From: Candidatus Heimdallarchaeota archaeon
GTDB lineage: Archaea > Asgardarchaeota > Heimdallarchaeia > Heimdallarchaeales > Heimdallarchaeaceae
Assembly: GCA_030668825.1 (NCBI GenBank)
Contig: DAOVET010000018.1
Location: 1 to 39,416 of the forward strand
Direction of reading: 5' to 3'
DNA length: 39,416 bases
In this document: in pieces, positions 11,301 through 22,407 of the stretch
Layout: each line of letters opens with the position of its first letter
Numbering within the stretch: position 1 is the first letter of the stretch
Program-made: the position numbers and the translations under genes
Notes under the pieces: generated by a model
Database searches by the model: none
Told to the model about the DNA's origin: nothing
What the model saw: only the letters and a program-made list of their open reading frames with translations

Positions 11301-11391
11301 CCTTAGCCAAGAGAGGAAATTCGAGTGCCAGTTTTTTTACTCGGCGCTGGTCACTCATGCATCCTCTAGGGCAAGGGGTGCCTATCGGCAT
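11301..11391 (-). ncRNA. Candidate structured small non-coding RNA (family unknown)
   Basis: GC-rich island in an AT-rich spacer. Nested stems CCUU/AAGG, GCC/GGC, AGAGGA/UCCUCU, GAGUG/CACUC, CCAG/CUGG plus a 5' UGCC-GAUA-GGCA hairpin. TATA (TATTTAAA, 11411-11418) upstream and a T-tract immediately downstream. Confidence 0.55.
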
Positions 11392-11507
11392 TTCTACATG
11401 TGAAACATCTTTTAAATAGATTCTAATAGTTCTATCCGCAATAGATTTTGGAAAAACTTTTGAAGATAGAAATACCAATCTTTTATAGTTAAAAAAGTCG
11501 TGAAAAG

Positions 11508-12371
11508 TTGAGTAAGATGCAAGAAGTAAAAATACATGTAGGATGTACTGGTTTTAACTATGATGACTGGAAATCCCATCTTGGAGCTTTTTATCCTGCT
11601 AAAATAGACAAATATGCTCTCTTGGAATTTTATTCTACTCAATTTACAACTTGCGAGATTAATTCTACATTCTATGCATTTCCAAAATTAGAAACAACAG
11701 CTAGATGGAACAAATCTCTACCTGACGATTTTGTACTAACCGCAAAAATCCCCAAATCGATTTGCCAAGCTGATAATCTATCAGTTGTTGAGCAGAATCT
11801 CAAATCGTTTCTACATGTCATGAGTCCTTTGAAAAAGAAACTTGGTCCTCTTGTTATGCAACTAAAACCTAGCTTCGAAAAGAATGATAAAACAAGGGAA
11901 CAGATCTATGATTTTATTTCGTTTTTCCCACACTCAGATTATCAACTAGTCATAGAATTTAGAGATAACAGTTGGTATAATGAAGATACATACGAAATGC
12001 TTAATGAGAAAGATATTGGCATTGTTAGTTCATTTCTACCCTATATCAAATTCAATCTTTTTGAAGAAGTTAAAAAAGATTATTTCTACCTTAGATTGAT
12101 TGGGTCTTATAAACAAACCATAGGATTGGGCAAGGAGTTAAAGGATCAGGCAGAATTGATGGAAAAAACAGTAGACCAACTGGGGGATGCTTACTCAAAA
12201 AATACTAATAAAAGCACAGGATATGTTTTCATTAACAACCATTTTTCTGGATATGCACCTCCAGCAGCAAGAAAATTCAAAGATCTACTTGCAGAAAAAA
12301 ATCTTATCCCTATTGAGCCTAAAAGAACCACATTCAAAGGACAACAGAAACTGGCTGATTTCTTTGGTTAA
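11508..12371 (+). CDS. DUF72 (YecE-like TIM barrel) protein with C-terminal PIP-box
   Basis: GCTGFNYDDW, FYP, EINSTFY..P, LGP..MQL.PSF, EFRD.SW, YLRL.G, FINNH..G.AP; ends QQKLADFFG. Confidence 0.92.
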   Translation: MSKMQEVKIHVGCTGFNYDDWKSHLGAFYPAKIDKYALLEFYSTQFTTCEINSTFYAFPKLETTARWNKSLPDDFVLTAKIPKSICQADNLSVVEQNLKSFLHVMSPLKKKLGPLVMQLKPSFEKNDKTREQIYDFISFFPHSDYQLVIEFRDNSWYNEDTYEMLNEKDIGIVSSFLPYIKFNLFEEVKKDYFYLRLIGSYKQTIGLGKELKDQAELMEKTVDQLGDAYSKNTNKSTGYVFINNHFSGYAPPAARKFKDLLAEKNLIPIEPKRTTFKGQQKLADFFG

Positions 12372-18386: not shown

Positions 18387-20117
18387 TCATAGTAAAGAGA
18401 AATATTGTGTGAATTTCTTAATATATTTCATACCTTTGATTTTTAATTTACCAGTCAAGATTGCTTTTAATGGTTTAACCTTTCCTACACCCAATCCTAA
18501 GAAAGTAGATCTAGTGGTTATTAAGACACCATCGCATTCGTCTGAGAGTTTCTTTATCTCATCTTTGGTGTTATTAACTGGATAAAAAGAAAGTTTTCCT
18601 TCCTTAATTACTACTTTCACTGCATGAGGATCATCTTTGGCCACAAGTAAGAGAGAATAATCATCACTAGAGTAATTCTGTTTAAATTGATCATTTGTAC
18701 TTAAATCCTTTATCATAGAATAGATTATTCCTGCAAATCCTTTGTAAGGTTTCAAATCCTCATAAATTGGTAAAACCATCTCCATTGTTTTCCTGAAACG
18801 GATTATGACTTCGTCTATTATTTTCTCATCCATTGCAGTTGAAAGCATAAAACCGATAACACCTCTTGAAATCCCATATAAACCGTTAATTGGCATAGCA
18901 ATCCTAAGATATTTTGAAAGCTCAAAATAAGGTATAGTATTGAAAGAAATTTCTCTTTTATTCTGAGCAACAACATCTGGAAACTGGACATAAGTAATTG
19001 ATTGAACACCGCCAACATAGCAGTCTACTCCAAGTTCACCCATAATCTCACGAAGACCTTTTCTCAGTCTATCACCTAGTTTACCTAATCTTTCAACTTC
19101 CTTTTCATCATATAATTCTAAAGCTGTTTTACCTGCCGCCATAGTAAGTGCGTTCCCACTGAAGGTTCCAGAATGCATGACAAAATTCTTTTTTGTAGGA
19201 TTGAATTGTTCCATAATCTCTCTTTTACCTCCAAAAGCTCCTATCGGTAATCCTCCACCTATGGCTTTTCCAAGAGCTGTAAGATCAGGAGTTATACCAA
19301 CAACTTTTTGCATTCCACCAGTTGATATTCTGAAAGTGATTACTTCATCTAAAATCAACAGAATATTATACTTCTGTGTTAATTCCCTCAAACCTCTAAG
19401 ATAATCAGGACTAGCTAAAACACCTCCAGCATAACCCAAAACAGGTTCAATTATTAGAGCAGCTATTTTCTTATGATGTTTTTTCATGATTTTTTCTGCT
19501 GCTTTTAAATCATTAACTGGAACAACATAGATGTCATTCAAAACAGACTTTGGAATACCTTTTTCTACACCAGGTTTAGGCATTCCTTCATTCAATAGAG
19601 CTGAATCAAAGTTTACACTAACATAATCATGCGATCCATGATAACAGCCATCCATTAGTATGATTCCATCTTTACCAGTATAAACTCTAGCTGCTCTCAT
19701 TGCAAACATAGTTGCTTCAGTTCCAGAGTTACAGAATCGGATTTCTTCAATAGATGGAACACGTTCACATAGAATTTTAGCTAATTCATATTGACCTGAA
19801 GTTGGTGCATTATGAGCAGTTCCTAATTTTGCTTGTTTCTGTAAAGTTTCAGTTATCTTTGGGTGAGCATGACCATGAAGAAGGACAGTCATGTTGTTTT
19901 GGACATCAATGTATCTATTTCCATCAACATCTTCTAGGTATGTCCCTTCTCCTTTTGTAACATAAAATGGGTAGGGATAAAAGTAGGTAATATTTCTTGT
20001 TCCTCCCCCAGGCAACCATTTTCTCGACTCCTCAAATATTTCTTTAGATTTGGGAGTCATTTCTTCATATTGTTTAACGATATTAGCTTTAACTTCTTCT
20101 AAATCCCGAGAAACCAT
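18387..20117 (-). CDS. Class III aminotransferase (GSA-aminomutase-like) with C-terminal SCP2 lipid-binding domain
   Basis: G.YLEDVDGNRYID, RFCNSGTEA, GCYHG, DEVITFR, GKAIGGGLP.GA, SGTFSGN. Tail ITT..TFLGL..GK.KP.KAILTGKLKIKG is typical of SCP2. Confidence 0.85.
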   Translation of the reverse strand: MVSRDLEEVKANIVKQYEEMTPKSKEIFEESRKWLPGGGTRNITYFYPYPFYVTKGEGTYLEDVDGNRYIDVQNNMTVLLHGHAHPKITETLQKQAKLGTAHNAPTSGQYELAKILCERVPSIEEIRFCNSGTEATMFAMRAARVYTGKDGIILMDGCYHGSHDYVSVNFDSALLNEGMPKPGVEKGIPKSVLNDIYVVPVNDLKAAEKIMKKHHKKIAALIIEPVLGYAGGVLASPDYLRGLRELTQKYNILLILDEVITFRISTGGMQKVVGITPDLTALGKAIGGGLPIGAFGGKREIMEQFNPTKKNFVMHSGTFSGNALTMAAGKTALELYDEKEVERLGKLGDRLRKGLREIMGELGVDCYVGGVQSITYVQFPDVVAQNKREISFNTIPYFELSKYLRIAMPINGLYGISRGVIGFMLSTAMDEKIIDEVIIRFRKTMEMVLPIYEDLKPYKGFAGIIYSMIKDLSTNDQFKQNYSSDDYSLLLVAKDDPHAVKVVIKEGKLSFYPVNNTKDEIKKLSDECDGVLITTRSTFLGLGVGKVKPLKAILTGKLKIKGMKYIKKFTQYFSLL

Positions 20118-20257: not shown

Positions 20258-20743
20258 TTACTCTTCAGTTTCTGTCATTGTAGGTGCACCAGTTGGTTTC
20301 CACATCCAGATTTTTAGCAACCAGACTGTCACGATAATTCCTACAAGTGCTATACCAAATGCTAGAGCATAAGATTGACCAAAAGCAATCAACCATGCTT
20401 TTCCCCACCCTGGAGCAAAGTGCATAGCTAACCATGGAACTTTGATAAAAGATACAAGTATTGCAATTTCAATACATAGAAGTGCATCTACAATTAATCC
20501 GAATCCCCAGAATTTTCCACTAGTAAGTAGTTTTTTCATGGGTTGTGTTCTCATCGCTAGCCCGAAATCATATTTCATTACTTTTTCAGCAAAAGGGCCT
20601 ATACCTGGTAGAAGTGGCACATTTTTAATCTTAATACCATTGAAACCAAAGTGAGCTGCAAAGAAAGCTACTGATCCAGCTGCTAAGAGATTTAATGCAA
20701 AGTGTTTTGCTAGATCTGCAGGGCCATATACAATTAATGCCAT
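20258..20743 (-). pseudogene. 3' part of a multi-TM membrane protein gene (DUF2798-like) interrupted by the TnpB element
   Basis: Hydrophobic, KAWLIAFGQSYALAF motif; joins in frame with 22173-22307 at a duplicated ATG. Confidence 0.75.
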
Positions 20744-20773
20744 GATGTGGTTTTGTCATCTTGTCATGTTAAC

Positions 20774-20795
20774 AAGAAAGTTTAACATCTTTCTT
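20774..20795 (-). repeat. Hairpin in the right end of the TnpB element (possible omegaRNA scaffold or transposase site)
   Basis: AAGAAAG-ATGTTAAA-CTTTCTT 7-bp stem between the tnpB stop and the element end. Confidence 0.55.
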
Positions 20796-20803
20796 AGAGG
20801 TCA

Positions 20804-22063
20804 TCATATAGAGTTATGCAACTGTTCTATACTCACTCTGAGTGGATACATCACGTATCCTCCTACCCCGTTCGCTGTGCGTTTAGGCACGGCTTTCGGA
20901 TCGCTTTTGATTAAAATATTGTATGCTGCATTTACATCAGCATTGATTAAATATCCTTGAGCTGAACGAAATAACCCTCGGCTCACTCTCTTACCTGCAT
21001 ACTTTGGTCGGGATTGAGGAAACTCGTTATCAAGGAAACTACACTTAGAGGTGTACTCTTCAGGGATGAGCTCAACATTTATCCCCCGTTCTGCAGCCTT
21101 GTACTTGAGCATGTTAATGATACGCATAAAGGGAATGGTCACAAACATCTGGGTGACCTTTTTCCAGAAGTGCACTCCTTGTTTCCACTTCTGATTGTAC
21201 CCAATAACCACTTCATGAATATCGCGTTCCACCCACAATTCTACTAGATAATGGGTGAGTTGGTGGATAGCGTCTTTGAGTTTCTTCCTCCACTTCTCTC
21301 GAAGCAGGTAAAATGATGTTCCATACTGCAATTTATTCTTTGTTTCCAGCTGCTGACGTTGTTGTTGGACATATTGTTCTCTTAGTTTGGTCTGATTTTT
21401 TAGATAATATTGTGTAATTGATTTTATTCCTTTCCCGTGATCCTTGATAACAATCGGTTGATTCCCGAGGTTATCCACAAAGGTCACAAGGTTGGTCATC
21501 CCTAAATCGATAGCTCCTTTTCTCCTTGAATTTTTCTTATTCTTAGGTAAGTTTTTCAGATAAACCAATTCTATCGTATAGCCTACTCTTCTGGGAATGA
21601 TTCTAACTTCTCTCAATTTGGTTAGTGCTGCTAATCTTGTCTTGTAATAGAATCCTACTTTCCTGGGTAACACTAACCATCCATTCTTAATCCTTGCTTG
21701 CTGATTGGTGAATATTGCCACTACCTCTCCATCTTTAGGTTTGTAATTAGGAGGATGAGGTATAGCAAAAAATGCTGTAGGATTAATTTTCCACTCCTTT
21801 ATTGCTTGAAAATAAGCCTTCCAGTTTCTAGATATGAGTTTAAGGGTGTGTTGAGCTGTATGAGCTGGTAGCACTTTATAACACTCTTCTTCTTTAAGGA
21901 GGGTATTGAGGTCATAATAATACAGGAGCTTGTTCTGCTTATTAAGCGAGGTTTTGATGAGGAAGTTTGCTCGATTATAGAGATTCTTTACTTGATGACA
22001 AAGCTTGCTCAACGCTGGATGATAGGACACTTCTATACATTCCACTCGCAGTACTTGTGTCAT
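20804..22063 (-). CDS. tnpB: TnpB RNA-guided endonuclease
   Basis: KNLYN.AN, AIDLG (RuvC-I), VVIGYNQKWKQ, EEYTSK, R..RGLF, INADVNAAYNI (RuvC-III). Own TATA (TTTTATA) about 25 nt upstream. Confidence 0.95.
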   Translation of the reverse strand: MTQVLRVECIEVSYHPALSKLCHQVKNLYNRANFLIKTSLNKQNKLLYYYDLNTLLKEEECYKVLPAHTAQHTLKLISRNWKAYFQAIKEWKINPTAFFAIPHPPNYKPKDGEVVAIFTNQQARIKNGWLVLPRKVGFYYKTRLAALTKLREVRIIPRRVGYTIELVYLKNLPKNKKNSRRKGAIDLGMTNLVTFVDNLGNQPIVIKDHGKGIKSITQYYLKNQTKLREQYVQQQRQQLETKNKLQYGTSFYLLREKWRKKLKDAIHQLTHYLVELWVERDIHEVVIGYNQKWKQGVHFWKKVTQMFVTIPFMRIINMLKYKAAERGINVELIPEEYTSKCSFLDNEFPQSRPKYAGKRVSRGLFRSAQGYLINADVNAAYNILIKSDPKAVPKRTANGVGGYVMYPLRVSIEQLHNSI

Positions 22064-22172
22064 CAGTAGTTCAGTTGTATTTTCCTATAAAAGCTCCAGT
22101 AATATCTGGTCTAACGCATACGTTCAAGGTGATTCGTTGTTCATTTAACATGACTACATGACAAATATCTTT

Positions 22173-22307
22173 CATAACTAGTGACATTGGGACAGCTATT
22201 AGGATAGTCATGAGTATACTAATCCACCAGCTTCTGTATTTGGGATTGAGTCGAAAACCGATAAATGGACTCCGAGGGAGTCTAAATCTTGCTTGAGAGA
22301 CTGTCAT
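22173..22307 (-). pseudogene. 5' part of the interrupted membrane protein gene
   Basis: MTVSQ...ISILMTILIAVPMSLVM; after Met45 the frame runs into element sequence and stops at 22071. Confidence 0.75.
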
Positions 22308-22407
22308 ATTTTCACCAATTTAGTTAGTTTAGTTAAATCAAAACAGAAAAGCAAAATCTTCCCAAAGAGGTTAATTCTAACTTTTTAAGCCATGTCTTGA
22401 TTTGCTC

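Follow-up and report, generated by a model that had tools for sequence, protein, structure and literature searches.

A TnpB-only insertion sequence family of a Heimdallarchaeota genus, with inverted ends and a TTAT target

How does an insertion sequence move when TnpB is the only protein that it encodes? TnpB-only elements are the commonest form in which TnpB occurs in archaea, and the manner of their movement is still argued. The question is raised here by one such element in a 39,416-nucleotide stretch of DNA from Candidatus Heimdallarchaeota archaeon (contig DAOVET010000018.1 of assembly GCA_030668825.1), which we refer to throughout as the window and which is contig C97 of an assembly of 2.76 Mb, 33% GC and 90.6% completeness. 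The element is an insertion sequence that encodes only TnpB and an omegaRNA, and its family is abundant in one Heimdallarchaeota genus. We think it probable, at roughly 60%, that the element is a non-autonomous relative of IS607 that has AT as its core dinucleotide and TTAT as both its target and its target-adjacent motif (TAM), and that is moved in trans. The family is clean material for this question: its empty site is exact, its target is four bases long, its ends mirror each other in a fixed register around AT, derivatives lacking TnpB exist, and transposase content has been recorded genome by genome across the genus.

An exact empty site in a membrane-protein gene

The mobile element is 1,432 bp long and occupies positions 20742-22173 on the minus strand (GAAAG...ATCAT). 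These borders were set by aligning other copies of the family; the original prediction had located the element correctly, but its span of 20741-22175 is corrected by the alignment, and at this particular site the placement retains a 3-bp ambiguity over an ATG. The borders were also checked independently: 20742 and 22177 are precisely the positions at which contigs with related copies, drawn from other sequencing runs, cease to match the window. Read on the minus strand, the left junction is ...CTAGTTATG|AAAGATATTTGTCATGTAGTCATGTTAA and the right junction TTAACATGACAAGATGACAAAACCACATC|ATGGCA, just as the strings had been quoted originally. The claim that the element is TnpB-only likewise holds in full, tnpB (419 amino acids; 20804-22063, minus strand) being its one gene.

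The gene that the element interrupts, also on the minus strand, encodes a membrane protein of about 205 amino acids, the N-terminal 44 codons of which lie at 22176..22307 and the C-terminal 161 codons at 20258..20743. A Pfam search of its product matched no family. Orthologues of the 161-residue C-terminal piece are present in 13 of 24 genomes of the same genus, and at all eight of the same-genus loci that we examined (L005-L012) the two pieces are joined in a single open frame of 204-212 amino acids. In particular, the N-terminal piece is identical at 44 of 44 residues to the uninterrupted orthologues at L005 and L006, and the C-terminal piece is 94% identical to them over 158 residues. The uninterrupted protein had been expected to read MSLVMALIV at the joint, and three of the eight loci (L005, L006 and L007) read exactly ...AVPMSLV|MALIVYG.

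At the DNA level, the uninterrupted same-genus gene reads ...GTTATGGCA... at the insertion site, and the empty sites of the two closest loci, L005 and L006, read ...TCACTAGTT|ATGGCATTAATT. The empty site contains a single AT (GTT-AT-GGC) and a single TTAT, and TTAT is directly followed there by the segment that in the window borders the right end on its 3' side (GGCATTAATTG...; 20722..20741, minus strand), which we predict to be the omegaRNA guide by analogy with published TnpB biology (parts of PMC10690162). Judged from this comparison of sequences, taking out the element together with one AT (or ATG) restores the host gene exactly, and the prediction of an exact excision that regenerates a 205-amino-acid gene is thus fully supported by the eight loci. 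Among the genomes searched, the insertion is confined to this species, and both halves of the gene are still undamaged.

Ends in inverted register around AT

The proposal that all copies be aligned with their flanks was carried out on 65 full copies from this genome and its relatives, and it yielded a TTAT target and a TCAT end. The left flank is ...TTAT in 50 of the 65 copies (positions -4 to -1 are T in 58, T in 63, A in 60 and T in 62), and the 3' end of the element is TCAT in 63, with the last five bases being A in 65, T in 64, C in 65, A in 65 and T in 64. AT ends the left flank in 58 copies and the element itself in 64. The right flank has no strong pattern, there is no target duplication, and the base after TCAT is variable, which fails to support the TG crossover that had been suggested as an alternative. 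In the window, TTAT abuts the left end at 22174..22177 (minus strand, as for all features of the element), its last two bases (22175-22174) forming the first copy of the putative core dinucleotide; the second copy is the final AT of the near-invariant right terminus ATCAT (20742..20746).

Both ends of the window element can be read as ATGA-N6-TTTGTCAT, with GTCAT repeated at a period of 8 bp, a symmetry that had been noticed originally and that both the sequence and a repeat search bear out. Within 20700-22220, the sole inverted repeat of at least 14 nt has arms of 21 nt that are 90% complementary, namely the left subterminal repeat TTTGTCATGTAGTCATGTTAA (22145..22165), which contains two GTCAT repeats 8 bp apart, is conserved in the family and co-varies with the right end, and the right subterminal repeat TTAACATGACAAGATGACAAA (20752..20772), which the family statistics also recover. 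For the family, an end signature can be written as TTAT|GAT...TTTGTCAT on the left and ...ATGACAAA-N6-ATCAT on the right, with two 8-bp-spaced repeats lying 10-27 bp inside each border.

The inverted repeat exceeds what chance would give, because over the 65 copies the left end scores 11.8 against the reverse-complemented right end, compared with 6.1 in direct orientation and 6.2 for shuffled sequence. Its register is fixed: in 41 of the 49 copies with a clear repeat, the first base of the left end pairs with the third base of the right end (a shift of +2), so that the repeat reaches the tips of the element and leaves one AT outside it on each side. Identity in this register is 17.4 of 30 positions, and 8.5-10.1 at other shifts. 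Moreover, the two ends of a copy match each other better than they match the ends of other copies (17.4 for own-copy pairs vs 15.6 when swapped, with the own-copy value reached in none of 2000 permutations), and some subfamilies, such as those of L019 and L081, have changed their motif at both ends together.

The two ends differ in their capacity to fold. When each copy was folded separately, a stem of at least 5 bp was found at the right end of 47 of the 65 copies and at the left end of only 7. Mean folding energy at the right end is -3.8 kcal/mol vs -2.1 for shuffled sequence, and the right-end stems (CTTGGC/GCCAAG, GTTGTC/GACAAC, CTTATC/GATAAG) vary by compensatory changes; at the left end the corresponding energies are -1.8 and -2.2 kcal/mol, no better than shuffled. 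In the window, the right-end hairpin is CTTGT-TAACATG-ACAAG (20760..20776; family consensus CTTGTC/GACAAG). RNAalifold, applied to mixed alignments of the ends, returned no consensus structure.

These ends share features with two known groups. The target rule of the IS200/IS605 family, insertion 3' of TTAT without duplication, fits, yet the ends are inverted repeats, and the same-strand subterminal hairpins that this family carries at both ends occur here at the right end only. What characterizes IS607 elements, one and the same dinucleotide in the target and at each terminus without duplication, is present with AT in place of the usual GG, together with the subterminal short repeats and shared inverted end sequences described in passages of PMC6188088. 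We also considered RNA splicing by the archaeal bulge-helix-bulge endonuclease, given that a read-through transcript could pair its left and right ends, and rejected it from the sequence: both junctions would sit within a single continuous 7-bp helix instead of in 3-nt bulges, and the pairing between exons is peculiar to this site.

The search for a transposase and the likely mode of movement

No Y1 transposase (PF01797) was found in this genome or in any of the 24 congeners. Y1 genes were present in 7 of 61 genomes searched, all of them in other genera of the same taxonomic family, where they are solitary or lie beside unrelated TnpBs with GC-rich hairpins unlike the ends studied here. This genome had no match to DDE_3 (PF13358) or to Cas1. 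IS607-type TnpA (NF033518) scored above its cut-off in nine of the 24 congeners; in this genome no match exceeded the cut-off, and a different IS607 TnpA was represented by just two short fragments. (That other element survives here as remains at C28:6928-7092, C133:4762-4896 and C127 ~11340-11560. They cover residues 1-55 of its TnpA at 89% identity and residues 151-195 at 64%; a copy of its right end is also present, and a TnpB-less remnant of omegaRNA and right end that belongs to the studied family lies directly downstream of this copy.) Three resident serine recombinases (L001-L003) were rejected as candidates; they have an N-terminal catalytic domain, are of the resolvase type, do not lie beside tnpB, and have no end motifs nearby.

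At the loci of 80 close relatives there was no recurrent neighbour, no TnpA and no DDE gene. More distant relatives, examined at 110 loci, had just two kinds of recurrent neighbour: IS607-type serine transposases, present on the same strand at seven loci (including L113/L128, L292 and L144-146), and Y1 transposases, present at five loci and only beside marginal relatives of 23-36% identity; no DDE gene was found at any of the 110. Every transposase that we found next to a TnpB relative of at least 32% identity was of the IS607 serine type. The nearest transposase-linked relative, L113 (43% identity), belongs to a canonical IS607 pair whose transposase matches the NF033518 equivalog at 168 bits. 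The IS607 elements of the congeners (L361-L365, in G001, G008, G005 and G023, and also L109-L118) consist of a 197-amino-acid TnpA followed by an OrfB of 622-647 amino acids, and their ends, ACYGT.../...AACGTGYGT (CAAGTTTAACCAAGTTTCATAACGTGYGT) with CAAGTTT repeats, are unlike those of the studied family. This OrfB is an unusually large TnpB-like partner whose C-terminal Cas12f1-like TNB match, at 24.2 bits, is below the threshold of 26.3. At L110 (G008:C15), a copy of the congener IS607 element that lacks OrfB, TTAT followed by CGTCATTTGTCGTATTTTGTTCATG lies about 150 bp upstream of the solo tnpA and resembles a left end of the studied family, which may reflect a nested insertion or chance.

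Searches for an autonomous copy or for intermediates of movement gave no positive result. None of 29 TnpA-bearing loci carries the studied end signature, and when genome contigs were scanned with a degenerate 20-mer of the end motif, the matches listed came mostly from unrelated bacteria, those from Heimdallarchaeota being TnpB-only. Contigs from four sequencing runs bridge the occupied junctions (the right in X13, the left in X14 and both in X18) and include neither a contig that skips the element nor a circle junction, although contigs cannot reveal rare forms. Of the checks originally proposed, then, the comparison with relatives produced the empty allele, whereas no autonomous copy with tnpA and no circle-junction or empty-site contig came to light. 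The nine congeners with an IS607 TnpA hold at least 137 matches to the studied family (a mean of at least 15.2), and the 15 without hold at least 66 (a mean of at least 4.4); this genome has 20 without any IS607 TnpA above the cut-off. We regard the association between TnpA and TnpB copy number as a weak pointer and give it little weight, because related genomes are not independent, neither relatedness nor assembly quality is corrected for, and the figures are lower bounds.

An IS607-like element with an AT crossover, moved in trans, was the favoured interpretation in the original prediction, and the evidence continues to favour it without proving it, no serine transposase with matching ends having been found. 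It is supported, on the strength of sequence comparison, by the AT at both borders and in the empty site, by the fixed +2 inverted register and the lack of a left-end hairpin, by the serine-transposase neighbours of related TnpBs, by the finding of IS607-type TnpA but no Y1 gene among the congeners, and by the TnpB-less derivatives, which carry the same ends. The published members of the family (IS607, IS1535, ISXfa1 and the Clostridium botulinum IStron) resemble this element in several respects. They likewise combine TnpB with an omegaRNA at the right end, and passages of PMC6188088 and PMC4058570 describe GG as a dinucleotide common to the target and both ends, ends that have inverted common sequences and subterminal motifs, and a circle in which the joining of the ends creates the crossover site. 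In the IStron, the target and TAM is TGGG and the right end TCGG, with the CGG trinucleotide required (portions of PMC10690162 and PMC13521648); target and terminus therefore differ there by one base upstream of the dinucleotide, as TTAT and TCAT do here.

In an IS607-like cycle, the element would have inserted at TTAT inside the membrane-protein gene. A serine transposase supplied in trans would pair the two ends and cut both strands at the border ATs, which would release a double-stranded circle and reseal the donor gene exactly, leaving the joint ...GTTATGGC...; the circle junction, ...CATC-AT-GATG..., would be a palindrome centred on AT that the transposase could recombine with a TTAT site elsewhere. 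TnpB and the omegaRNA would recognize TTAT and the former right flank in the emptied site and cut it, and repair of the cut from a filled copy would restore the element. The filled site would be spared thanks to the single base that distinguishes TCAT, the right terminus, from TTAT. Since no cognate transposase was found, this mechanism, from the serine-recombinase chemistry and the circle to the TAM and homing, is one that we infer.

Several observations weigh against an IS607-like element. No serine transposase with matching ends was found in this genome or beside the 80 close relatives, none of the 29 TnpA-bearing loci has the end signature, and the ends of the congener IS607 elements differ. 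The core dinucleotide is AT where GG would be usual, inverted repeats of about 28 bp extend to the very tips, the subterminal repeats have a period of 8 bp in place of about 10 bp, and the element lacks tnpA; a section of a 2026 review describes most IS607 members as ending in GG and the family as being without terminal inverted repeats (PMC13565253). The transposase-linked relatives of 43% identity end in ...AACCT, and the studied termini are therefore not common to them. The combination of TTAT, TCAT and a right-end hairpin is also typical of an IS200/IS605 element. The joint change of left and right motifs in subfamilies (L019, L081) is awkward if all of them need one foreign enzyme, and the contigs of the four runs hold neither a circle junction nor an empty-site read.

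The Y1-type reading that the original prediction also allowed would make this a member of the IS1341 group of the IS200/IS605 family: a Y1 (HUH) transposase acting in trans would cut the top strand 3' of both TTAT and TCAT, and the element would move as a single-stranded circle that inserts 3' of TTAT. We consider this unlikely, although much about the element suits it, namely a single tnpB, a four-base target on the left only, a variable right flank, no duplication, many diverged copies per archaeal genome, a right-end hairpin with compensatory changes, and Y1 genes in other genera of the same taxonomic family; according to parts of PMC10691335 and PMC3119063, solo TnpBs inside IS200/IS605-like ends are common in archaea. 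However, folding of the left end is no stronger than that of shuffled sequence, the end similarity is inverted and not direct, the right-end hairpin could equally be the last stem of the omegaRNA, and the Y1 elements of related genera have different, GC-rich hairpins. In addition, no Y1 gene was found in this genome or its 24 congeners, and the clade of the studied TnpB is linked to serine transposases, Y1 neighbours being confined to its marginal relatives. Inverted ends that reach the tips, with AT on both sides, could alternatively mark a cut-and-paste element of a DDE transposase that makes a fixed 2-bp AT duplication, like the symmetric-ended TnpBs linked to IS630. Parts of the TnpB census (PMC10691335) report inverted repeats for DDE-linked TnpBs, asymmetric ends for those linked to Y1 or serine transposases, and solo TnpBs moved in trans. 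Symmetric inverted ends around a TnpB-type gene, and the entry of a short fixed flanking sequence into the guide-RNA scaffold, are also features of Fanzor2*/Fanzor1 elements borne on terminal inverted repeats. Nevertheless, this is the least probable of the explanations that we considered. No DDE gene was found in this genome or beside any of the 80 and 110 relatives, TnpB is the only repeated transposon-type open reading frame (ORF) family in the genome, and the target is asymmetric, with TT conserved on the left only. Furthermore, the IS630 family duplicates TA and not AT, and a PDB sequence search with the studied TnpB returned nothing closer than weak Cas12f matches (E ~0.007).

It is also improbable, if a little less so, that the mover is of an unrecognized kind (a serine recombinase that is not cognate, an enzyme of the host or a route that depends on TnpB) or that the family is immobile in this genus and merely persists. 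No collection searched held a cognate transposase; the family is present in 20 of the 24 congeners, with a largest count of at least 29 matches; and the copies within this genome are diverged, the best DNA pair being 84% identical. Against this, the insertion is specific to this species and the gene halves are undamaged, a contig-end fragment (C12) is 95% identical to the window element, and copies of about 95% identity occupy other sites in other samples, all of which argues for fairly recent movement; known TnpB activity, moreover, restores copies and creates no new sites. Quite unlikely, too, is a further version, in which an Asgard TnpB lineage whose terminal inverted repeats are genuine, and whose end-joint is a palindrome centred on AT, spread through the genus without a cognate transposase by means of a partner new to TnpB. 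Such a partner might be a non-cognate or unrecognized recombinase, or a route dependent on TnpB and on the complementarity between the left end and the 3' segment of the omegaRNA. (A 2025 paper reportedly describes circular isoforms of IS200/IS605-associated omegaRNAs in archaea, which may bear on this pairing.) If neither a serine nor a Y1 enzyme acts on the studied ends, the family would point to a new partner of TnpB. If, on the other hand, the IS607-like reading is true, the IS607 family would be widened to include an AT core dinucleotide and terminal inverted repeats, and TTAT would be the predicted TAM of a compact (419-amino-acid), zinc-finger-less TnpB from the archaeal group that is nearest to eukaryotes.

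TnpB, its RNA scaffold and the wider family

The TnpB of the window matches OrfB_IS605 (PF01385, 46.6 bits) and Cas12f1-like_TNB (PF07282, 48.4 bits) in Pfam, and guided_TnpB in NCBIfam (NF040570, 142.2 bits against a cut-off of 100). Residues D193, E342 and D383 are nearly invariant (at least 97% of 66 aligned TnpB sequences), and in the protein the RuvC-III motif is NADxN, the C4 zinc finger is missing and the RuvC-II glutamate is displaced, features that we read with the clade description in parts of PMC10691335. E342, at the displaced position, is the putative catalytic glutamate. An ORF of at least 400 amino acids is kept in 61 of the 65 full copies. Upstream of tnpB, a conserved block of the left-end alignment, gGaGtTTtTATAgg, covers a TATA-box-like element, TTTTATAGG (22084..22092), which lies between the left repeat and the ATG, about 25 nt before the latter; this putative archaeal promoter would give a leaderless tnpB mRNA.

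At the other end of the element, RNAalifold, run on the last 200 nt of 49 copies, found 19 pairs of an omegaRNA-like scaffold (20742..20942) that overlaps both the 3' end of tnpB and the right end. Pairs 135-150, 136-149, 138-147 and 168-180 show two-sided compensatory changes in 15-22 of the 49 sequences, even though these pairs are inside coding sequence. The 3' helices look like an omegaRNA scaffold; a search of Rfam with positions 20500-22400, at E up to 1, matched no family. The role of TTAT as the TAM is predicted by analogy with work on the TnpBs of IS605 and IS607 (parts of PMC10690162). Because its ORF is intact and its catalytic residues, promoter block and scaffold are conserved, the window copy looks functional, as far as sequence can suggest.

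This genome holds about 20 TnpB copies of the family, at 57-85% protein identity. It also holds two TnpB-less derivatives, of 346 bp (C105:7754-8099) and 334 bp (C133:16366-16699), that carry the same ends, TATA block and RNA scaffold, and it is therefore the ends alone that are mobilized. These derivatives are comparable to standalone mobilized omegaRNAs and PATE-like elements, unlike the window copy, which is the full TnpB-coding form. In the region C105:7700-8099, the 346-bp derivative lies at a TTAT a few bases past a sequence that resembles the 3' end of a tRNA (...GGTTCAAATCTCCCTCCCCGCACCA). For copies without a recognizable left end, a displaced left end was sought within 2.5 kb, and none was found. 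A literature search for TnpB in Asgard archaea or Heimdallarchaeota, at the level of records, brought up no paper on this family.

More distant TnpB relatives, at 43-57% identity (L137-L140, L129-L132 and L289-L304), all end in ...AACCT. They come from Borrarchaeum, Hodarchaeota, Methanoperedens and metagenome contigs, the majority are likewise TnpB-only, and they have in common with the studied family a scaffold core with the GGGGTAGGAGG hairpin. The left borders of the relatives of 43% identity (the L113, Borrarchaeum and Ga0190 groups) are indistinct, and GCT precedes the first conserved base in three of five TnpB-only copies. In the window itself, an ORF of 576 amino acids (18387-20117, minus strand) adjoins the interrupted gene.

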